Part shown: piece after piece, positions 1,047 through 48,335 of the stretch | Position numbering within the stretch: position 1 is the first letter of the stretch | Layout: each line of letters begins with the position of its first letter | NCBI GenBank assembly: GCA_964016885.1 | Contig: OZ024755.1 | Coordinates: forward strand, 5,456,001-5,520,000 | Source: Eledone cirrhosa | Lineage: Eukaryota | Length of the DNA: 64,000 bases | Reading direction: 5' to 3' | The notes under the pieces: generated by a model | What the model was told of the DNA's origin: nothing | Database searches by the model: none | Seen by the model: the letters and a program-made list of their open reading frames with translations, nothing else | Program-made: the position numbers and the translations under genes

Positions 1047-3693
1047 GACAAGGCCGGTGCTATCATTAAGTCCAACTAGGCAGTCAAGCAGGACGCATAG
1101 AGGGGGGGGGGGGGGGCTAGTGCTACCATCAAGTTCAGCTAGGCAGCCATTTAAGGCGCAGAGAGAGAGAGAGAGACAGGGCTGGTACTAACATTTAATC
1201 AACTAGGCACCCATCTTGGGCACAGACCTCAGAGAGACAAGGCAAATTAAATCAACTAGGTAGATATCAAGGGCGTAGACCTCAAAGAGACAAGGATGGG
1301 ACTAACATTAAGTCCAGCTAGGCACCCAGCTAGGTGGCAAAGAGAGAGACAGAGCTGGTACTAACATTAAGGCCAACTATGTACCTATCATGGACGTAGA
1401 TCACAAGAGACACAGCTGGTACTAACATTAAGGCCAACTATGTACCTATCATGGACGTAGATCACAAGAGACACAGCTGGTACTAACATTAAGGCCAACT
1501 ATGTACCTATCATGGACGTAGATCAGAAGAGACAGAGCTGGTACTAACATTAAGTCCAACTATGTACCTATCATGGACGTAGATCACAAGAGAGAGAGCT
1601 GGTACTAACATTAAGGCCAACTATGTACCTATCATGGACGTAGATCACAAGAGAGAGCTGGTACTAACATTAAGGCCAACTATGTACCTATCATGGACGT
1701 AGATCACAAGAGAGAGAGCTGGTACTAACATTAAGGCCAACTATGTACCTATCATGGACGTAGATCACAAGAGAGAGCTGGTACTAACATTAAGGCCAAC
1801 TATGTACCTATCATGGACGTAGATCACAAGAGAGAGCTGGTACTAACATTAAGGCCAACTATGTACCTATCATGGACGTAGATCACAAGAGAGAGAGCTG
1901 GTACTAACATTAAGGCCAACTATGTACCTATCATGGACGTAGATCACAAGAGAGAGCTGGTACTAACATTAAGGCCAACTATGTACCTATCATGGACGTA
2001 GATCACAAGAGAGAGCTGGTACTAACATTAAGTCCAACTATGTACCTATCATGGACGTAGATCACAAGAGAGAGAGCTGGTACTAACATTAAGGCCAACT
2101 ATGTACCTATCATGGACGTAGATCACAAGAGAGAGCTGGTACTAACATTAAGGCCAACTATGTACCTATCATGGACGTAGATCACAAGAGAGAGAGCTGG
2201 TACTAACATTAAGGCCAACTATGTACCTATCATGGACGTAGATCACAAGAGAGAGAGCTGGTACTAACATTAAGGCCAACTATGTACCTATCATGGACGT
2301 AGATCACAAGAGAGAGAGCTGGTACTAACATTAAGGCCAACTATGTACCTATCATGGACGTAGATCACAAGAGAGAGAGCTGGTACTAACATTAAGGCCA
2401 ACTATGTACCTATCATGGACGTAGATCACAAGAGAGAGAGCTGGTACTAACATTAAGGCCAACTATGTACCTATCATGGACGTAGATCACAAGAGAGAGA
2501 GCTGGTACTAACATTAAGGCCAACTATGTACCTATCATGGACGTAGATCACAAGAGAGAGAGCTGGTACTAACATTAAGTCCAACTATGTACCTATCATG
2601 GACGTAGATCACAAGAGAGAGAGCTGGTACTAACATTAAGGCCAACTTTGTACCTATCATGGACGTAGATCACAAGAGACAGAGCTGGTACTAACATTAA
2701 GGCCAACTTTGTACCTATCATGGACGTAGATCACAAGAGACAGAGCTGGTACTAACATTAAGGCCAACTATGTACCTATCATGGACGTAGATCACAAGAG
2801 ACAGAGCTGGTACTAACATTAAGGCCAACTATGTACCTATCATGGACGTAGATCACAAGAGAGAGAGCTGGTACTAACATTAAGGCCAACTATGTACCTA
2901 TCATGGACGTAGATCACAAGAGACAGAGCTGGTACTAACATTAAGGCCAACTATGTACCTATCATGGACGTAGATCACAAGAGAGAGAGCTGGTACTAAC
3001 ATTAAGGCCAACTATGTACCTATCATTGACGTAGATCACAAGAGATAGAGCTGATACTAACATTAAGGCCAACTATGTACCTATCATGGACGTAGATCAC
3101 AAGAGACAGAGCTGGTACTAACATTAAGGCCAACTATGTACCTATCATGGACGTAGATCAGAAGAGACAGAGCTGGTACTAACATTAAGGCCAACTATGT
3201 ACCTATCATGGACGTAGATCAGAAGAGACAGAGCTGGTACTAACATTAAGGCCAACTATGTACCTATCATGGACGTAGATCACAAGAGAGAGAGAGAGCT
3301 GGTACTAACATTAAGGCCAACTATGTACCTATCATGGACGTAGATCACAAGAGAGAGAGCTGGTACTAACATTAAGGCCAACTATGTACCTATCATGGAC
3401 GTAGATCACAAGAGACAGAGCTGGTACTAACATTAAAGCCAACTATGTACCTATCATGGACGTAGATCACAAGAGAGAGAGCTGGTACTAACATTAAGGC
3501 CAACTATGTACCTATCATGGACGTAGATCAGAAGAGACAGAGCTGGTACTAACATTAAGGCCAACTATGTACCTATCATGGACGTAGATCACAAGAGAGA
3601 GAGCTGGTACTAACATTAAGGCCAACTATGTACCTATCATGGACGTAGATCACAAGAGACAGAGCTGGTACTAACATTAAAGCCAACTATGTA
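1047..3693. repeat. ~59-bp tandem satellite, about 40 near-identical units (1343-3693) preceded by degenerate units
   Basis: Unit agagctggtactaacattaaggccaactatgtacctatcatggacgtagatcacaagag; length varies mainly in the (GA)n linker. Confidence 0.98.
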
Positions 3694-4642
3694 ATCGATA
3701 CTAGATAGGTGCATTACTGAACTTTAAAAAAAAAATCGAAGGTTTATACAAATTTCTAAAATTAAATTAAATATATAAAGATTTTCTACAACCAATAAAT
3801 AAATCCTTAAACATATTTGATATGTAGCAACGTTTCAAAAAATTACCAAAGTGGAGGACAGGGTCGAATTGTGTTATGACCCATAACATGATTTGGCGTA
3901 GGTGGGTGTTAACTGTACATGCTTAGTAATTTTCTTATTGGGGTCTGAGCAAGAGATATAAAATAATTAGGTGTTTCAGATTACCAAACTGTAAGTTGAT
4001 AATTCTTTTGAGAGAACGACACGCTTAACTGAGAGAGGGGGAACGCACGTGGTAGGGTTAGGGTTATCTGAAGGCCCTATAACCTAGACCCGCTCTGGAT
4101 ATAATAGATGCATCTCATAATAAATATCGTAGACAATCTTTAGTAACGTTGAAAAATATAAAAAACAATTCCCATTTCAAAGAAACTTAATATATTCGAA
4201 ATATATCAAATTTTAAATAATATAAATTTGATTGCTGTTGTTTTCACGGGAAAACAAGTTAGACCAAGATTGTAGTAATTGTGAATTCTAAATTGAAGAC
4301 AACCGTTCATATTTATCATTTGTTAAAGAACAAAAAATAAAACAGGGATAATATTGGTTACTGGTGAAGGATATTATCTGAGAGGTGAGGAGTTACAAAC
4401 ATCGATTGATTAACAGGGATATAGAATACAATAATTCGATGAGAGTTGTTTAGTTAGATAACTGGATACAAGATATATAATTACCACCTTTAACTTACTC
4501 CTAGAGAACTCTAATAACAGAGTTTAAAACGAAATCAGAATACGAACAGAAACGTTTCCATCCCTTTAACCTTTCATGGCTGTATTTTTAATAAAATACA
4601 CTCTAGTTTAATTATTGAACATTTCCGAAGGGCTTCTTTTTT

Positions 4643-7124: not shown

Positions 7125-7291
7125 CTGGAAACACAAACAACGATGCTATTCGTTGGTTTATGTTGTTGAGCTTAGCCATTACACACAGAGTGTAGCATGT
7201 AATATATATATATATAAATAGCTTAGAGTTTAGACTCAGAGAGGTCATTTACAATCATTTCAGCTCTAGGAATTGCTTCTGAGCAGTATAA

Positions 7292-7971
7292 ATTAATATT
7301 TGATGAACATTTACATGTTATAGTTGCAATTGACTAATAAGATCGCTAGAGTGAAAAATATTAATTCAACAACATAAGGTCTGCCTGTACGATCTAGAAA
7401 ATAATAAATCAATACTCACAGATCATATGGGCAAAAAGCCTTGGTACCTAGACACGTTTAAAATTCAAAATACAAACTTTTTCCGCAGATCGGTCAGAAC
7501 TTCAAACTTCAAACATGTTTCACAAAGGCTGTTATTTCTAGCACTATGTGTGGGACGTTAGAGGACTGGAATAAGCCGTGTGCAAAACCTCGTGTATTTT
7601 CGCTACGCTAACCAGACCTTAGATATTTTTCTAAGGTTGAGTTATTTTATTTTTATCTGGGTGCCTATTGATAAACACAGAAAAAGTTGATTAACTCACT
7701 GCTAATTAGTTAATTATTTTACTATTGTACCATCCTTTGTGAAACATGTTTGAAGTTTGAAGTTCTGACCGATCTGCGGAAAAAGTTTGTATTTTGAATT
7801 TTAAACGTGTCTAGGTACCAAGGCTTTTTGCCCATATGAGTCTGTGAGTATTGATTTATTATTTTCTAGATCGTACAGGCAGACCTTATGTTGTTGAATT
7901 AAGATTTTTCACTCTAGCGATCTTATTAGTCAATTGCAACTATAACATGTAAATGTTCATCAAATATTAAT
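7292..7971. mobile_element. Foldback/MITE-like element with ~237-bp near-perfect terminal inverted repeats
   Basis: 7292-7528 is the reverse complement of 7734-7971 with only a few differences; ~205-bp spacer; no ORF. Confidence 0.9.
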
Positions 7972-8044
7972 ATATATATATATATACACGTATATAGAAT
8001 CATAAGAATCATATATATATACACGTATATAGAATCATAAACAC

Positions 8045-8412: not shown

Positions 8413-8726
8413 TAAAACCAACAATAACAACATTATATTGAAGATTCTAGTATGACCTAAACAAAATTCATCTGATCCATGTAATGCTGAAAAATCCTTC
8501 GATAAATAAAAGAAAAAAAAACAAGGCACTGAGCTGGCCCGCCGCAGGTGTGAGCCTCGCGAGTTGGAATGGCTTTTCCAGCACGTCTCCCATGCCGTCC
8601 TCCTGGGAAATGCCTTCTCCATTCTGTCCGCCGGGGCTGTGGGGAGGACACCAATATGATTGACTGACTTTTCATTTTATCAGTCAGATGTTCTAATGAT
8701 TCTATATATATATATATATATATATA

Positions 8727-8906
8727 TAGGAACAAGTATGACCCCGACGGCAGAGCTCAAGCCGTTTCGACGGCTATCTTATGTCCAGAAATAGCCGTCG
8801 AAACGACTTGAGCTCTGCCGTCGGGGTCATACTTGTTCCTACTACCCTAAGTATTGAGTACTTTGGTGCGTTATGGTCCATCTGGTTCCTTACCACAATT
8901 CCTTCG

Positions 8907-8908
<2 letters not shown>
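8727..8908 (+). mobile_element. Palindromic hammerhead-derived mini-element in (TA)n
   Basis: Hairpin 8727-8841 (loop 8778-8790). The arms carry the HHR 3' half GAAAC-GGC-(GAGCTC loop)-GCC-GTC. Tail with GTATTGAGTAC. Homologous to 24604-24781. Confidence 0.75.
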
Positions 8909-8940
<32 letters not shown>

Positions 8941-9047
8941 GTTCATGTATCATAAGAAATGCTAAGTAGAATATAAAATACGTCAAGAAACTTCTTACAG
9001 AATAAATATATTGCAAGAAAACAAAAGAAAGATTAAATGTTACTTAC

Positions 9048-9077
9048 ATTACTGATTTCGAAATCATGAGGTTAGAC
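9048..9077 (-). CDS. Candidate 30-nt symmetric phase-2 microexon (SNLMISKSV)
   Basis: Minus-strand acceptor caattttttcAG and donor GTAAGT. Only one frame is open, and it matches the phases of the exons at 22437-22488 and 7072-7124. Confidence 0.55.
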
Positions 9078-9626
9078 CTGAAAAAATTGAACCGGTTTTT
9101 CCTAAAAGAAGTATGCAGCATCATTTTAAAATTAAATTTTCTTCGTTAATTCTCGTTTGTATCATCGAAGTTTGTATCATCCTACAAAACAAAATAGATA
9201 AAAAGTATGTGAAATTGTGCAGTGAACAGCTGAAGTATTATACTATTAATTTTTATCTGTTCAAATGCTACAGGTATTAACCGAAGCTGCGAGAAATGTG
9301 AATGTAAACACCAGTTTTTATATATTTAATATATTTTAGCATATGAACCAGTTTTAAATTCGTATTTCTCTGTTGATTGAAAAATATGAAATGATTGACT
9401 CGAGTTTCAATCTTTATTGAGATCATTGAAAACTGTTTGTCTTTCGCAGTCCATGAAAAAAACACGTAATCCAAAGATTAAGCGAAAAGGAGGGGTCAGT
9501 CATTTCTGGAATGTCGTAAGGTCAGCTCAATCAGAAGCATGTACGGCCACGAGCCGACCTAAAGCTAAGTAGTGGTAGTGCCATGAGGGATTTCAAATCT
9601 TTTTGTATCTCAAATCTTTTTGGATC

Positions 9627-9772
9627 AAGCATAGGCAACATTTTTCTGGCTGTGGGCTGCATACGATGTGGATCATCATAGAGTGGGTCGCACTATAAGA
9701 AAAAATTAAGGTCATTTTGAACTTAGGCGTGCCATTCAGAAAGCCAAACGCGCCGCAGTTTGCCCATAACTC
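9627..9772. mobile_element. Degenerate hAT-like MITE
   Basis: Ends caagcataggcaac... and ...gtttgcccataactc are imperfectly inverted. Confidence 0.4.
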
Positions 9773-10387
9773 TTTAGGACCATGGAACTCTTTATCGAAT
9801 CCTTAATCCCTCTTCAACTCAAGACATGTACTAAACTAAATCGATAATTCAATAGTAAAGAGCTACTAGAAATAGCAACCAAATCTCCTTCATATTACTA
9901 CCTACCATCTTTAAAAGAGAGAAGGACATATATAAAGTAGTGCTGCTAATTGCACAATGCCAGACAAAAAAAAAGGGCGGGTTGGTCATTGTTGGAGTGC
10001 TTTTGATCATAAGTTTAGCTCAATCAGATATTTTATTAGCAGCAAATACGGAGTCAATGTTGAAATTATAGACTGTATTGGATAAAAGTTGATTGGGTTT
10101 GATTAGGATGAATACAATACATGATAGGCGTTGCATTCGTGGTTAATTAAGCTTCGTATTTCTACCATGACGTGGGTTGCCAAATAATTGTTCATGTGAG
10201 TTACAAACAACATAATTATAGCGATTATAGTAATGGTAATGATGATGATGATGATGATGATGATGATAAAGACGACGATGGTGATGACGACTGACTAACA
10301 ATTGTGATAGCGATGAGGTTGTTCATGGGAACGGTGGACCTGATGATGATGATGGAAACATTTATGATGATAACAATCGCAATTTTC

Positions 10388-11175
10388 AACGCCAGTACAA
10401 GGAATAAAAGAATGCGGTGCCCCAGCATGGCCACAGTCTAATGACTGAAACCAGGACAAGGAATAAAGAAATGTGGTGCCCCAGCATGGCCATAGTCTCG
10501 TGACTGAAACCAGTACAAGGAATAAAAGAATGCGGTGCCCCAGCATGGCCACAGTCTAATGACTGAAACCAGGACAAGGAATAAAGAAATGTGGTGCCCC
10601 AGCATGGCCATAGTCTCGTGACTGAAACCAGTACAAGGAATAAAAGAATGCGGTGCCCCAGAATGGCCGCAGTCCAATGACTAAAACCAGTACAAGAAAT
10701 AAAAGAACGTGGTGCCCCAGCATGGCCGCAGTCGTGACTGAAACCAAGACAAGGAATAAAAGAATGTGGTGCCCCAGCATGGTCGCAGTCTAATGACTGA
10801 AACCAGTACAAGGAATAAAAGAATGCGGTGCCCCAGAATGGCCAGAGTCCAACACTAGAAACCAGTACAAAGAATATAAGAATGTGGTGCCCCAGCATGG
10901 CCACAGTCTAATGATAGAAACCAGGAACATGAAAAAAAAAATGTGGTGCTCCAGCATGGCCACAGTCTAATGATAGAAACCAGGACAAGGAATAAAGGAA
11001 TGTGGTGCCCCAGCATGGCCACAGTCTAATGACAAACCAGTACAAGGAATGAAAGACTGCGGTGCCCCAGCATGGCCACAGTCTAGTGACTGAACCAGGA
11101 TAAGGAATAAAAAGAATGTGGTACTCTTGCATGGCCGCAGTCTAATGATAGAAATTAGTAAAAGGAATAACAGAA
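10388..11175 (+). repeat. ~59-bp tandem array (~13 units) derived from a dispersed repeat tail
   Basis: Unit aaaccagtacaaggaataaaagaatgcggtgccccagcatggccacagtctaatgactg; single reverse copies at ~17652-17686 and ~23742-23763. Confidence 0.95.
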
Positions 11176-11892
11176 TAAGCGATTCAAGTAAAATATATGA
11201 GTGAATGAAGGTTCTATCGAATCTTACTAACTTAGCCCCCCCCCCCTATCATTTTGTTTATATTAAATAGCGTTCCATCGACAAAGATACTAGCAGGAAA
11301 CTAACTGTAACAGAACAAATAGTTTACATTACATATCATTACATATTACACTTGATAGATGCTAGTGAAGATCTGCTGAACTGGAAGTGCTTAAGTAGGA
11401 ATAAATACAAATAAAAGTCGTTTTAAGAAGAGCACAATCTCAGCTTGTATTGTATACTTAAGACTTGATATATGATTCATAAATAACTCTTTTAGATATT
11501 TCGTTGTTTCTTGTATTTTGGGAGGTAGTTTTGTTTTACTTCCAGAAGCATGGTGAGTTGAGTGGTGAACAGTGTAGTAAGTAAGCCAATGGTATGCAGT
11601 GCGCTGTGGAGTAAGCCAATACAAACAACAGGGAAGATTTGTGAACGACTTAAAAATAACACAGAAGAGACGAATCTGTAAGCTGAAATTGAAAACTAGT
11701 AGATCCGTCCCGTCAATGGTATTATATGATATGATATGATATGATATGGTATGGTATGATATGATATGGTATGGCATGGCAGACCTGTCAATTCTCCCCG
11801 TCCGACGGGAGATTTCCCACCCACTTTGTGGTAGGTGAGTGCTGTCTTCTCTTGTGAAAATGGGTATAGCTTTCATTATGTAAAATCTCCCC

Positions 11893-12008
11893 TGAGTTCA
11901 AATCCCGCCGAGGTTAACTTTGCCTTTCATCCTTACGAGGTCGATAAAATAAAGTACCAGTAATGTACTGGGTAATTGCTGGCCTTGTGCCAATAGTAGA
12001 AACAATTA
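11893..12008 (+). mobile_element. 5'-truncated SINE family A with TSD, nested in a TIR element
   Basis: TSD attatgtaaaatctcccc on both sides. The host element has inverted ends cagacctgtcaa (~11780) and ttggcagatctg (~12100). Confidence 0.9.
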
Positions 12009-12504
12009 TGTAAAATCTCCCCATTTTGCCTCATTTCTCCTCGTTTTGTGGCACTTATTTTCATGGTACCCGTGTGGGTTTTTAGAGGTTGGCAGATCTG
12101 GTATGGTATGGTCTGGTCCCGTAACTCCTGATAGACTCATAGGACGACATATTGAATTGACACACTCGTACGAAGTTTCTTGGGCATTTTAAGCCTGGCG
12201 GAGCCCATCCCTCCCCATGCCTGAGTACAGCAGAGTTCAACTCTTCTTATGAATAACTACATTGTTTCTTTCTAGGGACTATATTGAAAAATAAACCTCA
12301 TTTGTTCATTCTATGAGAGTATCTTGGTCAGGCTATGGACATTTCAAACGACCCTCTTAATTTATTTCTAGGATATAATTACATAAATGTTCAGAATATT
12401 TGTACAAATGACATACAAGTTCTTTAATACAATTATGAATAACAAAGCAAACGATACAGTACAATGAAGAAATATAGTTTAACGTTTGATATAGTAGGAA
12501 AAGG

Positions 12505-12542
12505 GTCTTAACGTTTCGGACACTAGTCCTTCATCAGAAGAC
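12505..12542 (-). ncRNA. Minimal type I hammerhead ribozyme (Penelope-type)
   Basis: Minus strand GUCUU-CUGAUGA-A-GGAC(UAGU)GUCC-GAA-ACGU-U-AAGAC: 5-bp stem I, 4-bp stem II, palindromic ACGU stem III, GUU cleavage triplet. Confidence 0.85.
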
Positions 12543-13049
12543 AGAATGAGAAATAAAAGAAATAGAAAGATGGAGAGTAAAAGAGAAAGAAACGGAAACA
12601 AAAATCCTTTTAGAAAAAACGCTTGTATTTAGTCAGCTTTGATTTGTATTTAAATATATCAGCGTTCAACCTATTAAATATAATTTATTTCCTTTAGCCC
12701 TTCCATACTGAATATTTTGACAAAAACCCTCGCGGATATACGTTTTATTAAACATATAGCAGTTAATATGGAAGCTTTAGGGTTACCAGAAAATTCCTTT
12801 TGAAAAAAATAAATTTTTTTCTGAATAGAATTTTAAGAAATATAGTATAAGGCTTCTTTTCGAGTAATTTTCAATGTATGTAGCTAACATAATAGATTGT
12901 ATTGAGCAGATTCCTGGCAGAACAGACTATCAGACATGTCTTAGAAATAAACTATATCTTACAAGAAGTTACAATGCTTCCAGGAATTGATTGATTTTAT
13001 TTGTCAGATTATTGACGTCTATTAGACGTATTCATACGTACATATATAA

Positions 13050-13135
<86 letters not shown>

Positions 13136-13831
13136 TTACATGCTTATACACACACGCATAACACAAATATATATACATACTTTGATTACCTGTACAGGTA
13201 TATATATATTAGAATGCTGTCGAAGTTTGTATATATTTTTTGGGACAACCTGTGTATGTATACATCGACACATATACATATGTAAAAAACAAAAGAAACA
13301 AAGGATTTAATAAAGTTGTTTATATTTTCGTGTAGCAAAATCTCTATAGAAATTCTTTATTTGACATGTTAGCTCTGACACTCTTCCTCACGGAATTGGA
13401 AGTTATTCAGATTTGCAAGAGTCTCGTATCAATGTCGACTCTGCAACACTCGCTCTCGAAAATCGTCAAAGGTTTTAAATAAATACAAATCTATATATGT
13501 AGGTTCTGACGTTTCTTATAACTTGCCACTAACTGCTTTCCAGATTTCGGATTATATTTTGTGCTATTCATATACTGACAGAAATAGGAAATAAAGGAGA
13601 AAATAAGGCATTGAATTGGGGGACACCAGGTTGTTAAAATGCCGACAGGCTTTTGATAGATTTATCGTGGAAAGGGACACCGGAACTACCTCCGTACTTA
13701 TTGGGATCGGAGGAATAGAGTCGGCCACCCGCAAGTCGAATGGCTTTTCAGCGTATCTCCCTCGTTATATTCCGGAGTTATCCCGTGTGGTGGTCGCTTA
13801 CCGGCATAGCATTAAAAGTGACCCCCCCCCC

Positions 13832-13885
<54 letters not shown>

Positions 13886-13945
13886 GGGTACGTGCACTTT
13901 TAATAGTATACGTGTATGTTTATGTATGCAAATAAATAAATCATA

Positions 13946-13985
<40 letters not shown>

Positions 13986-14459
13986 TTATAGATCTATATT
14001 ATACATATATATCACCAATTTCCATTGTTGCATAAGGTTTATGTTTATAGCCGGGGAAAAAAGCGAAAGCGTGGTTAGATATTTTGATTTATATAGTTTC
14101 CACTATCTCCAATGTCTTCATATTTCAGTTATGGCTTCCAGTTCTTCAGGCTTCCAGTGATGTCTTAATATTGATTGCTACTTTAGTTTATCTAACCACG
14201 ATAGATTGGAATTCAGAACGTAAAGAACTGAAAGAAATGTCGAAGTATATTGTCCAAAGCTCTAACGCAGCGTTTCTCCATGGGTGTTCCCCAAAACCCA
14301 AGGGTTCCGCTAGAGGTCGTTAGGGGTTCCACGAGAAACAGTGATAAAAATATATATTAAGAAATAGTTATTAATAATAATATATAATAATTTTTATGCA
14401 GGGGTTCCCTGAGACATGGGAAGAAATATAGTTTAACGTTTGATATAGTAGGAAAAGAG

Positions 14460-14495
14460 TCTTAACGTTTCGGAAACTAGTCCTTCGTCAGAAGA
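14460..14495 (-). ncRNA. Minimal type I hammerhead ribozyme, second copy
   Basis: UCUU-CUGACGA-A-GGA(CUAGUU)UCC-GAA-ACGU-U-AAGA; flanks ~14420-14598 are homologous to ~12466-12637. Confidence 0.8.
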
Positions 14496-15789
14496 TAGAA
14501 CGAGAAATAAAAGAGGAAACAGAAAGATGAAGACAGACAGAAAGAAAGGAAAAAAAAGATTTTTTCTTTTAGAAAAAACACGCGTGTATTCAGTCAGCCA
14601 TTATATATATATATATATATATAGGGTGTCCCCCCAAGAATGTATGCACACTGTTGAAGTTTGTATATATATTGGGGGGGGGGACACCCTATTATATGTA
14701 TATATAATAGAACATGGGAGTTAGCTAGCTCGAATTTTCGCTGCAACGACTCGCAGCTGATTGGGACTTCTAAATGTATCAAATATATACACCCGCACCA
14801 TTGTGTGTGTGTGTGTGTTCATAATACAAACAACATACGTGTGCACGATATGCATGCTTATCGTTTTAATGGTGAAAAACATTTCAGTGCCTACTGAACA
14901 CGAATTGTGTAGAGTTAGAGACCATTACATTTATTCCATGGAAAGTCAATGACATTTTTCTCTGTCACACAAACACACATATAATTTATACAGACAAACA
15001 CTTTCTCTTTGTCATGCAAATATACACGCATGCTTACACACATATAATTTATACAAAATCTTTCTTTTTCTTTCTCTATGTCATGCAAATATACACGCAT
15101 GATCACACACATAATTTATACATATAAACAGACAAACAAATAAACAAGCACCCATACACACGTACACTTTAAATTGTTGTCTTCGTTCTATAATAAATTG
15201 CATAAGATACTATATATATATTTTTTACAAAAGATCCGTCTGTATAACATTTCGTTGTTATTGTTATATGTGTATTCTGTCAACAATGATGCTAGGAAAT
15301 GGAATATGTAATCAACAGAAGATAACAGTCCGCCATTTTACGGTTTCGGAAGAGAGTTTGCTATCTTCTTCTTTACGTTGAATACAAATACAAACTATTG
15401 ATCAACTTACTATCTAAGAAGCTTTTTAATACAATCGATTTTCTGTCTTGAATAATTTTAAACCTATCATTGTCAAATGCATATTGCTTAAATGTAACAT
15501 TTTAAAATTATGTCCACTGATCTCGAATTTAGGCAGCTAGTCATGAAGCGAAACTATTTCTATCTCGTATGATTTGATTTAGCTCCACTAAAATTATACG
15601 TGTAAGTAGTTTTGACAATTATTGTTTATCCAAAATACCATCAAATAAGAAAGTTTATATACAAAGCTAAGAGTAATCTTAAAATGGATGCCAAACATTG
15701 TAATGTGTTGAAGTCTATTATAGTTTGGTATCAACTCTAGAGGTTTTTTTCCATCGAAATATTGGTCTCTCTCTCTCTCTCTCTCTCTC

Positions 15790-15829
<40 letters not shown>

Positions 15830-15875
15830 CACACACATACAAATATATACGCACACACACACATATATATATAAA

Positions 15876-15974
15876 TAGGGTATCCCAAAAATGTATAAAC
15901 ACTTCAACAGCAGTCTAATAAATATTGCCTGTACGGGTAATTAAAGTGTGTACACATTTTTGGGGGACACCCTG
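15876..15974. mobile_element. ~100-bp Tc1/mariner-like MITE
   Basis: TIR (C)AGGGTGTCCCCCAAAAATGTATACAC. Further copies at ~14622, 17602 (partial), 26171, 30765, 30850, 33593, 49205 and 61263 (partial). Confidence 0.85.
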
Positions 15975-16383
15975 TGTGTGCGTGCGTGTATATATATATA
16001 TATCATTTTATATTCCTTTTTATAAAAGAGAGACTTGAAAAGAAAAACCACTGCCAATAACCCTTTCAGGTTCTGCTACACCAAAGAATATATGTAATTT
16101 TGTTAGATCGATAAAATTGCTATTTCGTTGGAATATCAGGCAACTGGTTGGTTGTAGAGAAAATGTAGCAAGGAATGAGTTTCAGATGAGGGGAGGGGAA
16201 ACCTTAAAAATAAAAATGCAAACGAAAGACACAAAACTCCAGGGTCATCGGCTATTAAGGTGGATTATGGCAGTTTTGACCCGAACCAACGGTACTGCTG
16301 ACCCACCCGGGGTCACAGCATTTGACACAAGCCAAAAGCTGTCCAGTGGAGCAAGAGAGGAAAATCTCGAACGCAGAAGATAA

Positions 16384-16412
16384 CTATAAATAGAGCCGAT
16401 TGCTATAAATAA
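16384..16412. promoter_or_regulatory. Paired MEF2/TATA-like sites (CTATAAATAG, CTATAAATAA)
   Basis: Sites at 16384-16393 and 16403-16412, in a non-repetitive block that also has GGGTCA half-sites. Confidence 0.3.
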
Positions 16413-16629
16413 AAGTGGCCAGCTTATATATGTATATATATATATAGTGTGGTTATGTGTGTACGTGTCGCTACATTTCAGCAAAGTTCAGAGAATAAAG
16501 TGTTTTATCAGTGAAGGAAGAGATAATCACGAAATGTAGGCCATTGCTAGAACTGTTTTCATTGAGAGTAAGACATTGGGTTTGATACCTTTCGGTATTT
16601 GTTTCAGCTTACTTACTGCACTCTCAGTT

Positions 16630-16920
16630 TTAATCCTGCCTCATTCTACCAGGAGTTGCAATAGATAGATAGTATCAGCAACAGAAAAAAAACTAAATGG
16701 AAACATAGCTTCCTTGGTCCGATATGACGACCTGTCTCTTTATTTTTCTGCTCAGTAAACTAGCTGAAATATCAGTTCTAATCTTGCCTCATTCTACCAG
16801 GAGTTGTAATAGATAGTATCAGCAACAGAAGAAAAAATAAAATAAATGGAAACATAGCTTCCTTGGTCCAATATGGCGAACGGTCTCTTTATTTTTCTGC
16901 TCAGTAAACTAGCTGAAATA
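16630..16920 (+). repeat. ~145-bp direct duplication of a SINE-B tail segment
   Basis: ctcattctaccaggagttg...aaatggaaacatagcttccttggtcc...ctagctgaaata occurs twice; related to 29305-29565 and 37320-37410. Confidence 0.85.
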
Positions 16921-18801
16921 TAAAAGTGAACAACAAACAACCCCAAAAAATATTACAGTAAACTATTACAGTGAATTATATTCAGACTGTGCTATACATG
17001 CACCAACTTGCTTTGTCGTTTGTGTTAGTTGTGCTGGTACTGAAGAGAAGAAGAAAAATCAATCTTCATTTTCAAGGTTTTGTATGATTCTATACGATGT
17101 CTTTGATGTTAAAGTTGTGTATATGATTATTAGAAGAGATTTGAAAATATCTAACAAAGAACAAACAAATAAGATAAAATAAAATAAAATAAAATAAAAT
17201 AAAAAAATAAATAAAATATTGATTTTCTAACAGACGAAATTGGATATTGGTTAGTTTTTATTTATTTATTATTATCAGTATATTATTTTATTGAGCATTG
17301 TTTTAGCAGGATTTGGAAATGGGAATTTGTGATATTTATGGCGAGAGTAAAATGAAAAGCGAAACCGGGTCGCAATCTCAACTCAATGACAGTTTTCCTC
17401 ATGTTTTTACAATATATGACATAAAATGAACCTTAATATTGATTTCTCTCAAGCAAGCACTAAGAACTATATAAGTCGATCGAATCAGCTCCGATATCTT
17501 TCCAATACATGTTTCAACTGTGTATTGACGAAAGGCAAAGCCAACCTCCGTCAACATTTCCACGAATAATGTGTATATATATAAAGACAAAACTATATCT
17601 ACAGGGTGTCCCCCAAAAATGTATACACACTTCAACAGCATTCGAATCAAGTCAGTCATTAGACTACAGCCATGCTGGAGCACCGTTTTTGAAGGGACTT
17701 AATTCATAATATCAATCACAGTAATTATTATTTTTTTTTTTAGATCCGTGAGTTATTTTATCGACCTTTTTTAGTCAAACTGCTAAATTACGATAAATAA
17801 ATCAACAGTAAATGTAAATACTGACCAGTGTCATATTTACTATTGTGCTTAGGTGTACTTAAGCATAAGGCCCTGTTGGCCGGGAGGGGGGGGGGGGAGC
17901 TCCCCCCAATCTTTTACGCTGAATTTTTCAAATGTTTTTCAAATGTAAGGGGCCTCATAACTTAACTAACATAGGGCATCATTTGTCCTAAATCCGACAC
18001 TGATACTGACTCACACATGTTAGGTTTTAACAATTTCCCTTTATCAAATTCCTCTCACAGGTTTATGGTATGGTCAACCTGGACCTATATAGGAAGACAC
18101 GTGCCTAGGGTACCATTCAATGTGACTGAACCCTCAAACCAAGCGTTTATAAAAAAGCGGACACCTTAACGAGAACTGTGCCTATGTCAAGTTCTTTGGA
18201 GACAAAGTAAACTTTATGAGGGTGCTAGGGAGAGATGTATAGCTAAACCTAAGTTTATTACTGGCTATCATTCTTATCAATATCAGTCTTAACACAGCAG
18301 TTAACTGTGAAGATATATTAAAAATCGATGATTAGAGCTGAATATGTGATAATTCATTAAATAGATAATACAGAACGCGAGAAAAATGCATAAATATTAG
18401 AATAATGGAAGATAATAAATTTTCATAGTTTCCATGACATAAAGATATCACAAGTTTTCTATTATACACAGAATTTATATACCATAATGAAATGATATAC
18501 ATTTATGAAATAATAGAAAGAAAAATCTCTTTCCAGCTTGTAACGTTCTTATAAGCAACGTTCTGTTGATTTATTAACATAAAATTACCGCCATTGCGAA
18601 GTTGCTATAACAGCAGTTGAAATAAAGTGCTTCGTTGTATGTGTATGAAATTCTAATGATATCTATTACGAATAATTTTCTTATATAATATATATATATA
18701 TATATATTATATATTCTCATATATATGGTTTTTCTCATGTGTGCATATATATAGATATTCTCATAGATATATATTTTTTCTCATGTATGTATGTATGTAT
18801 G

Positions 18802-22436: not shown

Positions 22437-22488
22437 GGAACCATGCATGCAGATTTCTTGATCTCCAGAGAACCTGATTCTATACCTC
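22437..22488 (-). CDS. Candidate 52-nt exon of a minus-strand gene (GIESGSLEIKKSACMVP)
   Basis: Minus-strand acceptor gtcgatgttttgcAG and donor GTAAGT; ends in phase 2, compatible with 9048-9077. Confidence 0.5.
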
Positions 22489-26333: not shown

Positions 26334-27171
26334 TGTAATTCTCTCTCTCTCTGTATGTATATATATATATATATATATATACGCTACGTTTGTTAAAGGA
26401 TTAAGCAAACTGATGTCGATATATTTATAGTACACACACTGAAGGCACATGAAAGAAGAGCAAGTATGAATGAATAAAACATGATTTACTGAGTGACTGA
26501 GTTTCTATTGGTACAATGAATTGATTGACGAAAGGAAATTAAAACGTTACATAACATTTAATGGGCCATTGGGTCACAAGCGAAGAATTTGTCTTCATGG
26601 CAGTGTGTAAAAAAAAAACAAAAAAACTAAAACCAAGTCAGCATATCGTTACACTTCCTTCTGCGGGCTATTAACTTATAACCAGATATAGCAGCCTAGA
26701 AAGAAGGAAGGAGAGAGTGAAACGAATTGGTTCAACAGAGAGCCAAACATGTTTTTACAGTCACTCTCTCCACACAGCACTCAGGCATAACTATGCTTGT
26801 GCAGTGGAATGTAAACCTTATTTATCCCTATCCCTCCTTATGCATACAGCCTTAAACCTTTCATGATAAATGTGTACTACAAAATTGAAAGGAGTTTCCC
26901 AGAAAATATTTCTTAATTCCGATTAAGAAACACACTTGAAATCCAGGCCACTTGAACCTCACCAAATATATTTGTATTCACATCTAATCACAAACATTTC
27001 GTTGAGGATACACTACCGACGTGAAATGCTTTTATATTGCTTAAACCGGTTTATTCTTGCAGCGTTACAATGTAACTTCCACGGCAAAACACCTTTATTA
27101 TCTACACTATATATATATTTTTTCCAATTCCAACCCGCCCATCCCCTCAATCTATCTTATTTCTCATTCTT

Positions 27172-27207
27172 TCTTCTGATGAAGGACTAGCATTCGAAAC
27201 GTTAAGA
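27172..27207 (+). ncRNA. Minimal type I hammerhead ribozyme, third copy of the ACGU family
   Basis: UCUU-CUGAUGA-A-GGA(CUAGCA)UUC-GAA-ACGU-U-AAGA. Flanks are homologous to the 12.5-kb copy, and the tail runs into (TA)n at ~27295. Confidence 0.75.
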
Positions 27208-27290
27208 CCCTCTTCCTGCTATATCAAGTGTCAACCTAATATATCCCTTCCATATACTGTACCGATTGTGTTGTTATTCTATTTACCTTT

Positions 27291-27334
<44 letters not shown>

Positions 27335-46495: not shown

Positions 46496-47326
46496 AATTG
46501 TCTAATTTTCCTCAAATCACACCCTACTGTTTAAAAATAAAAAAAAATATTTAAAAAAAAGCCGATCGTTAGATTAGATCAAGAAAACTATACTTCCAAA
46601 TATATTTCCATTACTGATATTATCTGTCGATAACATCTCTTGGAAGTAACATAAGAATAGACACACTGGATAATGTAGTCCGAGCTACACAATAGCGAAA
46701 ACAACAACAACAACAGAAACAAATAAGTTGGTCACAGCTGGAATAGCTCTGATCATATCAGAGTTGTTTCAGTATGTAATAATAATAACAGCACAAGCTG
46801 AATCAACAACAACAACAGCAGCAGCAAAACAACAACAGCAGCAGCAAAACAACAACAACAACAACAGCAGCACCACCACCAACAACACACAAGCAGAAGA
46901 AGATTCATCATCATCATCATCACCATCACCACCATCACCAGCAGCAACACACCAGCACCAACACACAAGCTGCAAGAACAACTCAGTACTCTAATTCAAA
47001 TGTACTTGTTTAACATTCATATTGAGGATGTTTAAGTTATTATATTTCATCAATGGAGATGATCGAATCAAAAAGCAATTTTAAAATATAACTTCAACAT
47101 AATTAGGAAAATGGCCGAGAGAAAGGACCTCAGTGTGACGGTGACATCTGTATATTAAACAGAAATAGTGTTGGGTCTCACATATTTGAACTAAATATTG
47201 CCAGAGTCATTAGGGTGACAGAGAGAATGCTTTGTGATATTTGTTTTTTGGAACCTATGTATCATACTCGATGACAAATCTTGTATCAAGATATATGTGT
47301 TACACAACTCCACCAACCATATATTA

Positions 47327-48335
47327 TATAGTGTTGGTATGGTACATAGTGAGGTGAAATAGTGTTGGTATGGTATATAGTGAGGTGAAATAGTGTTGGT
47401 ATGGTATATAGTGAGGTGAAATAGTGTTGGTATGGTATATAGTGAGGTGAAATAGTGTTGGTATGGTATATAGTGAGGTGAAATAGTGTTGGTATGGTAT
47501 ATAGTGAGGTGAAATAGTGTTGGTATGGTATATAGTGAGGTGAAATAGTGTTGGTATGGTATATAGTGGGGTGAGATAGTGTTGGTATGGTATATAGTGA
47601 GGTGAAATAGTGTTGGTATGGTATATAGTGAGGTGAAATAGTGTTGGTATGGTATATAGTGGGGTGAGATAGTGTTGGTATGGTATATAGTGAGGTGAAA
47701 TAGTGTTGGTATGGTATATAGTGAGGTGAAATAGTGTTGGTATGGTATATAGTGAGGTGAAATAGTGTTGGTATGGTATATAGTGAGGTGAAATAGTGTT
47801 GGTATGGTATATAGTGGGGTGAGATAGTGTTGGTATGGTATATAGTGGGGTGAGATAGTGTTGGTATGGTATATAGTGAGGTGAAATAGTGTTGGTATGG
47901 TATATAGTGGGGTGAAATAGTGTTGGTATGGTATATAGTGGGGTGTGATAGTGTTGGTATGGTATATAGTGAGGTGAAATAGTGTTGGTATGGTATATAG
48001 TGGGGTGAAATAGTGTTGGTATGGTATATAGTGGGGTGAGATAGTGTTGGTATGGTATATAGTGGGGTGAGATAGTGTTGGTATGGTATATAGTGAGGTG
48101 AAATAGTGTTGGTATGGTATATAGTGGGGTGTGATAGTGATGTGAAATAGTGTTGGTATGGTATATAGTCAGGTGAGATAGTGTTGGTATGGTATATAGT
48201 GAGGTGAAATATGGTATATAGTGGGGTGAGATATGGTATATAGTGAGGTGAGATAGTGTTGGTATGGTATAGAGTGGGGTGTGATAGTGTTGGTATGGTA
48301 TATAGTGGGGTGAGATATGGTATATAGTGAGGTGA
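47327..48335. repeat. 31-bp minisatellite, ~32 units
   Basis: atagtgttggtatggtatatagtgaggtgaa. Confidence 0.98.

Follow-up and report, generated by a model that had tools for sequence, protein, structure and literature searches.

Two minimal hammerhead motifs upstream of a Shaw/Kv3 channel gene in Eledone cirrhosa: stubs of a Penelope-like element of likely common local origin

Two minimal hammerhead ribozyme motifs, here called A and B, lie on the minus strand of a 64,000-nt stretch of Eledone cirrhosa DNA (the window). Each has for its stem III a loopless, self-complementary ACGU, so that neither can form this stem as a monomer. Does the pair act as a dimer in cis within the precursor mRNA of a host gene, or are the two motifs remains of a transposable element, and in that case of one insertion or of two? 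We have approached these questions through the structure of the motifs, the repeat in which they are embedded, the DNA between them, their kinship, the gene on their strand, and the predicted folding of the RNA.

An earlier note on this DNA had reported two minus-strand hammerheads with intact cores, about 1.95 kb apart, each with a GUU cleavage site and the loopless stem III described above. Inspection of the sequence, together with folding, bore out this description, including the cleavage sites (Table 1); the 2 motifs are 1,954 nt apart. On the minus strand, in which A is the upstream copy, the core of A runs from CUGACGA (14491-14485) through an extra A and stem II to GAAACGUU (14471-14464), and that of B from CUGAUGA (12537-12531) through the same elements to GAAACGUU (12517-12510). 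All the features of sequence and structure that the available text of Cervera and De la Pena (2014, PMC4209133) gives for minimal hammerheads of metazoan Penelope-like elements (PLEs) could be seen in both copies: the CUGANGA ... GAAA ... UH core, palindromic positions 15.2-16.2 (ACGU) with no helix III loop, an extra nucleotide (A) between positions 9 and 10.1 followed by a G10.1-C11.1 pair, and a short helix I (4-5 bp) together with a helix II, the latter degraded in A. Copy A is structurally damaged, having lost one pair of stem II (3 bp, with a stem I of 4 bp), as compared with 4 bp and 5 bp in B, whose stem I is one pair longer than that of the family majority. Helix II, at 4 bp (3 in A), differs from the 7-8 bp that the same partial text gives for the Schistosoma families.

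The window contains 3 matches to the pattern CTGANGA-N8-25-GAAACGTH, as compared with 0.01 on average (maximum 1) for 200 dinucleotide shuffles; the third match is the plus-strand copy C, which is antisense to the host gene described below and has a damaged stem II. None of the 3 motifs was detected with Rfam at the gathering threshold, and an E-value scan of the A/B pair gave no hammerhead either; the Rfam family models do not cover a loopless stem III. A substitution common to A and B creates a second palindrome, AACGUU, about 30 nt downstream of the cleavage site (minus strand, 14436-14441 and 12482-12487); by pairing with the palindrome of stem III, it could act as a decoy.

Table 1. Features of the hammerhead pair, its surroundings and the neighbouring channel gene (window positions unless a locus is named)
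Feature	Position	Strand	Remarks
Hammerhead A, minimal type I	14460..14495	-	stem I 4 bp, CUGACGA, extra A, stem II 3 bp, GAAA, ACGU palindrome, GUU site 14464/14463
Hammerhead B, minimal type I	12505..12542	-	stem I 5 bp, CUGAUGA, extra A, stem II 4 bp, GAAA, ACGU palindrome, GUU site 12510/12509
Copy A, family 2 (older PLE subfamily), short pLTR stub	14420..14601	-	begins at the family's common 5' boundary; lacks the family 3' end beyond TATATTTCTTC
Copy B, short pLTR stub of family 2	12438..12640	-	3' end about 20 nt short of the one usual in the family
Copy C, the third stub with a hammerhead, of the younger subfamily (family 1)	27115..27295	+	outside the pair
Spacer, about 1.78 kb	12641..14419		mostly unique DNA, microsatellites, short repeat remnants
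8-nt direct repeat, upstream copy	14712..14719	-	candidate target-site duplication around MITE-like element and copy A
8-nt direct repeat, downstream copy	14414..14421	-	exactly at the end of A's family similarity
Short palindromic MITE-like repeat	14623..14690		in a TA run 5' of copy A
32-nt stretch with 3-nt deletion, copy A	14420..14451	-	only exact genome twin is 12466-12497
Twin 32-nt deletion-bearing stretch, copy B	12466..12497	-	exact genome match
Shaw/Kv3 gene pieces	L211:8516-9249, L212:5925-6986	-	11-24 kb past the window's low end
Candidate upstream exon of the earlier note, 52 nt	22437..22488	-	AG/GT borders; would be Shaw/Kv3 5'-UTR, non-coding
Candidate downstream exon of the earlier note, 30 nt	9048..9077	-	AG/GT borders; would be 5'-UTR, non-coding

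Each motif occupies the middle of a longer repeat copy of 180-200 nt, and copies A and B could be aligned at 82.8% identity over 203 nt. We searched the 3.0-Gb genome (the window lies on a 45-Mb contig) with B and obtained 2,771 candidates; among 40 that were scored, 39 were copies other than B itself, at 81-87%. A 33-place core pattern had 3,436 exact matches in the genome and 0 in a reversed control, and a 34-mer of family 2, with up to 3 mismatches allowed, had 3,841 (control, 0). The repeat comprises 2 subfamilies, the younger family 1, to which C belongs, and the older family 2, which includes A and B. The copies have a fixed 3' end in common and vary at the 5' end; of the 137 tails examined, 92 continue into a TA/CA-type microsatellite. 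When 60 family-2 copies were picked only by a 3' anchor, 21 were observed to start within -12 to +15 of one motif, relative to which A starts at +2 and B at +6; 36 of the other 39 were shorter, and 3 gave a longer local alignment, only one of which was a real extension by eye. This 5' boundary motif presumably resembles a YY1 site. The 137 tails held no shared sequence that would point to a tandem body on their 3' side, and we found no full-length tandem of either subfamily. Family copies with an adjoining inverted piece of themselves, which is typical of PLE insertions, were seen at loci L033, L036, L090, L098, L200, L240, L244 and L259.

Since about half of the spanning family-2 copies in one sample keep an intact core (16/33; 22/75 in another sample), the presence of two intact cores in the pair is unremarkable. 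Close neighbours are also known from the family at large. A same-strand copy lay within 2.5 kb of 3 of 60 sampled copies, some second match lay within 4 kb of 14 of the 60, and same-strand pairs 200-4,500 nt apart were found at 12 of 264 loci. Extrapolation from these sampled loci to thousands of copies suggests that close same-strand pairs in the genome may be of the order of a hundred or more.

We traced the repeat to its parent element by following long copies in the 5' direction. Upstream of family-1 copies we encountered ORF fragments in which a YIDD motif, a linker of the form C-x4-C-x2-C and the YIG motif of the endonuclease were present, in the order reverse transcriptase (RT), then C-terminal GIY-YIG; in these broken pieces Pfam gave GIY-YIG at E 0.002 and RVT_1 at E 0.003, both under the curated cut-offs. 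For family 2, a related ORF remnant was present upstream on the same strand in 3 of 30 loci chosen for 5' extension (tblastn E 5e-26, 2e-23 and 1e-10). These remnants span the linker and the GIY-YIG part, with C-x4-C-x2-C read across a frameshift in locus L177, and are joined to the hammerhead repeat by continuous sequence common to the long copies; a Pfam search of 4 family-2 ORF fragments gave no match. A stretch common to the upstream regions of 2 family-2 loci, L006 and L013, was set aside as another repeat; of 30 loci, just one besides the query locus contained the hammerhead pattern. The family's master element was not among 30 GIY-YIG loci picked by Pfam, one of which (L072) had an opposite-strand stub. 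Other hammerhead-like motifs were noticed at several loci. At L063, L066, L070 and L077 a different hammerhead-like motif family lies near GIY-YIG/RT ORFs of a different PLE, with open frames of up to 1,096 aa; the hammerhead motif at L067 (minus strand, 8899) and L068 (plus strand, 7986) is nearer to canonical type I, since its stem II is long and its stem III has a loop; and on the plus strand of L071 three hammerhead motifs (7568, 8079 and 8562), about 500 nt apart and 3 kb downstream of a PLE ORF, look like a tandem retrozyme-like array.

Judged from these ORF remnants, the repeat is the end (pLTR) of a Neptune/Nematis-type PLE, and the earlier note's assignment of the motifs to the PLE class of minimal hammerheads can be maintained. 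In the portion of PMC8557442 available, a CX2-5CxxC linker before the GIY-YIG domain marks the Neptune and Nematis clades. The endonuclease-bearing PLEs of these clades, as that portion describes them, resemble the elements seen here in the C-terminal GIY-YIG after such a linker, a hammerhead close to the 3' end, TA/CA microsatellites at the ends of copies, and inverted 5' pieces at some loci; they differ in that the window carries only the non-coding end repeat. The tandem hammerhead pairs treated in the available text of PMC4209133 flank a PLE ORF of about 3 kb, whereas the A/B pair flanks non-PLE DNA. Non-LTR retrozymes, according to the part of their description at hand (bioRxiv 10.64898/2026.07.22.740005; for general background on PLE-related hammerheads see also the accessible part of PMC6765202), are likewise PLE-related, non-coding repeats with type I hammerheads. 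They form head-to-tail arrays with a hammerhead in each unit, however, while A and B are dispersed stubs with an unrelated spacer between them. We rejected an identification with such retrozymes, as there is no tandem array at the locus and the similarity of A to B is confined to the stub.

A second proposal of the earlier note, that A and B mark the two pLTRs of a single decayed Penelope element, was not supported. The spacer shows no similarity to PLE protein or 3'-UTR, B starts at the 5' boundary usual for the short form, and a separate candidate target-site duplication accompanies A. Comparison with PLE proteins, which the note had recommended for the spacer, gave no match anywhere in the window (tblastn with PLE proteins from the genome itself). 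The unique stretches of the spacer likewise had no match, and hence no PLE UTR, in 864 kb of fetched loci that included family-2 copies with their upstream UTR and ORF. Because no PLE sequence was found in it, we do not regard the spacer as a decayed element body. A long paralogue or donor of segment 13290-14310 was sought in the genome and none was found by a DNA search whose yield is a lower bound. The 8-nt direct repeat around A, which would occur by chance at a rate of 1.4% when tandem arrays are left out and of 6.4% when they are included, favours A as an insertion in its own right, which would have been copied from B or later converted. The element between this repeat and A is a putative MITE, to judge by its inverted ends and its other copies in the window. 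A tandem segmental duplication with retained flanks was considered and rejected; the 3-kb regions around A and B have in common only the stub and MITE-like pieces. Downstream of A there is a DNA-transposon-like remnant, of which 1.6 Mb of loci contained no full copy. Elsewhere the window has tandem arrays at 1225-3800, 10392-11176 and 47173-48309 (units of 61/59, 59 and 31 nt, respectively), and, at 7287-7976, a 136-nt inverted repeat (arms 99% complementary, separated by 418 nt) that is likely to be a young non-autonomous DNA transposon.

Are A and B more closely related to each other than to the remainder of their family? Both lack the same 3 nt downstream of the cleavage site. The 32-mer that bears this deletion had 2 exact matches in the genome, namely A and B, as compared with 105 for the form without the deletion. 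At up to 3 mismatches there were 13 matches to the deletion form versus 3,841 to the other, or about 0.3% of family matches; it should be noted that the 13-match pattern includes the tail, which A lacks, so that A itself cannot match it. Over the 98-nt 3' half, A and B were 94.7% identical, a value equalled by 0 of 74 other copies in comparison with A and by 1 of 74 in comparison with B. In an alignment-free comparison, rare shared 9-mers were as frequent as between A and B in 5 of 2,775 control pairs (11-mers, 10/2,775; 7-mers, 97/2,775).

Other observations were less discriminating. The 5' halves of A and B were 77% identical, like those of unrelated copies; automatic alignment gave just 2 substitutions common to the pair, a number equalled by 42% of control pairs; the 3-nt deletion recurs independently at other loci; and a likelihood tree of 89 copies, which ignores gaps and had not converged, did not group A with B. 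Six shared features picked by hand were present as 5/6 in A, 6/6 in B and at most 1/6 in others, but these were picked after viewing A and B, and we do not count them as evidence. It may also be that the identity of the 32-nt stretch is an artefact of polishing or assembly. Three DNA contig sets, all from one sample, cover unique pieces of the spacer and show no differences there; they provide no independent check of the shared 32-nt stretch. Because the shared deletion is so rare (13 versus 3,841), we consider it likely, from this comparison of sequences, that A and B share one local origin.

The nearest gene that we found is on the same minus strand as the pair, which agrees with the sense orientation given in the earlier note. 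In the flanking 200 kb, BTB_2 and Ion_trans domains (Pfam) identify a Shaw/Kv3 potassium channel gene, with a Shaw T1 domain at E 8e-72 and a protein 97-98% identical to Octopus bimaculoides Shaw. Its ATG, at window position -10972, agrees with the start of the annotated relative and places the pair 23.5-25.4 kb upstream. The exon that bears this ATG has a strong acceptor 221 nt upstream of it, which implies one or more additional 5'-UTR exons in the 5' direction. The pair is thus likely to lie in a 5'-UTR intron of Shaw/Kv3, and the whole window may belong to the same intronic region. For 8500-18400 no RNA data set was listed as a match, a result that carries no information on expression. Among 150 of 167 filtered ORFs of the window, Pfam found nothing over cut-off, and among 60 flanking ORFs from a list of 176 it found, over cut-off, only Kv, a LINE RT and, within that LINE ORF, a PHD domain; neither search would detect short exons. 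LINE-type RT ORF pieces lie downstream of the Shaw gene on the minus strand (L218:388-4749).

Can the pair cleave the RNA in which it lies? A double hammerhead requires a stem I formed across the copies, and this arrangement is topologically nested in cis. We used folding models in which tertiary contacts, Mg2+ and proteins are omitted, so that the energies serve as relative guides. As a short fragment, B alone was predicted to fold stems I and II, with a probability of about 0.9 for most pairs, and to lose stem I in a longer context; stems I and II of A alone were predicted to be unfolded (pair probability at most 0.12). In a two-strand model the active A-B form was at -11.9 kcal/mol as compared with -24.3 for the best inactive duplex, and the active B-B form at -18.3 as compared with -25.5. 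In the model of the natural 2,045-nt RNA, the full double hammerhead was 17.6 kcal/mol above the ensemble. A half-dimer in which the core of B would cut the site of A, with 5+4+4 bp, was 7.8 kcal/mol above it, and the other half 11.0. The ACGU segments of A and B paired with a probability of about 0.16 in this RNA, and thus the palindromes can meet; for the pairs of the cross-copy stem I the probability was <0.001.

We also compared divergence of the core with that of the flanks, in copies not selected on the hammerhead. The respective values were 23/332 and 115/1279 in 34 copies (p 0.27), and 11/174 and 88/1059 in 19 copies (p 0.45). A first test, in which the majority sequence came from a different subset, had given p 0.007 for core conservation, but this result was gone when sample-specific majorities were used. 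Because stem II of A is damaged, the active folds lie 8-18 kcal/mol above the ensemble, cores decay like flanks and similar neighbours occur in 3/60 copies, cis cleavage by the pair appears unlikely from these models, and the earlier note's suggestion that the pair could cleave the host pre-mRNA is not supported. Published work bears on the point as well. In the available part of PMC4209133, single minimal hammerheads are inactive and dimers weak, even designed dimers cleaving poorly. In that of PMC11167929, hammerhead cleavage requires a PLE protein, uncut RNA serves as the principal template, internal priming occurs in vitro, and the anole RNA discussed includes no reads ending at the hammerhead site.

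In the aggregate, we think it probable that A and B are minimal hammerheads in two pLTR stubs of an old, high-copy PLE, that one stub likely owes its sequence to the other through local copying or conversion, and that both are predicted to be inactive in the host transcript. Three other readings of the pair were weighed. The whole of A, spacer and B might be one insertion, in which two direct pLTRs of one template enclose captured host DNA or a wholly replaced body, as in rotifer PLEs. The direct orientation of A and B and their shared rare deletion would be accounted for in this way, and the length of the spacer is like that of the unique spacers of 0.9-1.5 kb and of the unrelated DNA captured between solo pLTRs that are described in the text available from PMC3846280. 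The solo pLTRs of Adineta vaga reported there are similarly direct, about 1-2 kb apart, and have unrelated unique DNA between them. They differ from the present case in two respects. We found no convincing target duplication that encloses A, spacer and B together (the repeats seen were of 7 nt or had mismatches, and did not lie at the ends), while the 8-nt repeat brackets A alone; and no donor was found for 13290-14310 (again as a lower bound, in a genome-wide search that covered this one of the two unique parts, the other being 12645-13015). Taken with the lack of PLE sequence in the spacer, these observations make a single insertion unlikely. Less likely again, in our judgement, are two fully independent insertions of this abundant family 2 kb apart, with the deletion shared by chance. 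Neighbouring copies are indeed common, the tree does not join A and B, their 5' halves look unrelated, and the deletion recurs elsewhere; yet a form present in about 0.3% of family matches, a 32-mer exact only in A and B, and a 3'-half identity at the top of the family range are not readily expected of independent copies.

A functional pair, that is, a double hammerhead that cuts the 5'-UTR intron of the Shaw/Kv3 pre-mRNA at one or both sites and thereby frees a 1.95-kb RNA or damps the transcript, is in our estimate improbable. Points on its side are that both cores are intact, as against 16/33 and 22/75 of sampled family-2 copies, that the pair is sense to the Shaw gene, and that a dimer is topologically possible, with palindromes that can meet and a B-core half-dimer that can be drawn. 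However, an intact core is how the pair came to be noticed and so gives no independent support; A is short of one stem II pair, the full and half forms are high above the ensemble, the cross-copy stem I is rarely formed, and the family cores show no selection. The poor cleavage by designed dimers and the anole reads, within the parts of the 2 papers cited above, point in the same direction. The most elaborate form of the idea, to which we give the smallest chance of all, would be that local pLTR duplication built a long-range double hammerhead in the Shaw/Kv3 5'-UTR intron, in which each partner completes a dead core across 1.95 kb and the cut is made co-transcriptionally, perhaps only with a PLE protein or chaperone.

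The preferred reading, of 2 locally related and inactive stubs, suggests the following course of events. Stubs would arise when the PLE reverse-transcribes uncut RNA with priming at the 3' tail; synthesis would often run to one 5' boundary, maybe an internal start site of the pLTR. Tail priming on uncut RNA fits the in vitro behaviour of the PLE protein in the available text of PMC11167929, and a common 5' boundary as an internal start site fits the internal promoter that Penelope has, according to the accessible part of PMC2377424. The second copy at this locus would have come from a local templated insertion (in the case of A, with the candidate 8-nt target duplication) or from gene conversion between neighbours; we favour such local events because the similarity of A and B stops at the edges of the element. 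In the life cycle of the PLE itself, the hammerhead would act in dimeric form or assisted by the PLE protein. In the Shaw/Kv3 5'-UTR intron, it would be spliced out before reaching its rare active fold.

In the literature that we searched, through listings and the beginnings of abstracts, we found no description of Neptune/Nematis-type families in octopods that carry these hammerheads. Penelope families are listed in a repeat annotation of octopus (PMC13282606); in the part of the article available, its main text contains neither 'hammerhead' nor 'ribozyme', and its supplements may list families. The motifs themselves are new members of an already described kind, and the unusual detail is their likely shared local ancestry next to a Kv3 gene. 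Most likely, the pair is ordinary genomic debris, and a further example of PLE minimal hammerheads that are scattered by the thousands. Two side results are of modest value, namely these octopod families themselves and the clustering of copy starts at one 5' boundary, with the cleavage site spanned uncut, which fits internal priming on uncleaved RNA as seen in vitro. If it were true that the pair cleaves in cis, split and dimer-dependent ribozymes could act over kilobases inside host introns; and if a long-range double hammerhead were formed here, a neuronal K+ channel would be tied to transposon activity, and the close same-strand pairs in the genome, likely hundreds, would be a hidden class of conditional RNA breakpoints.
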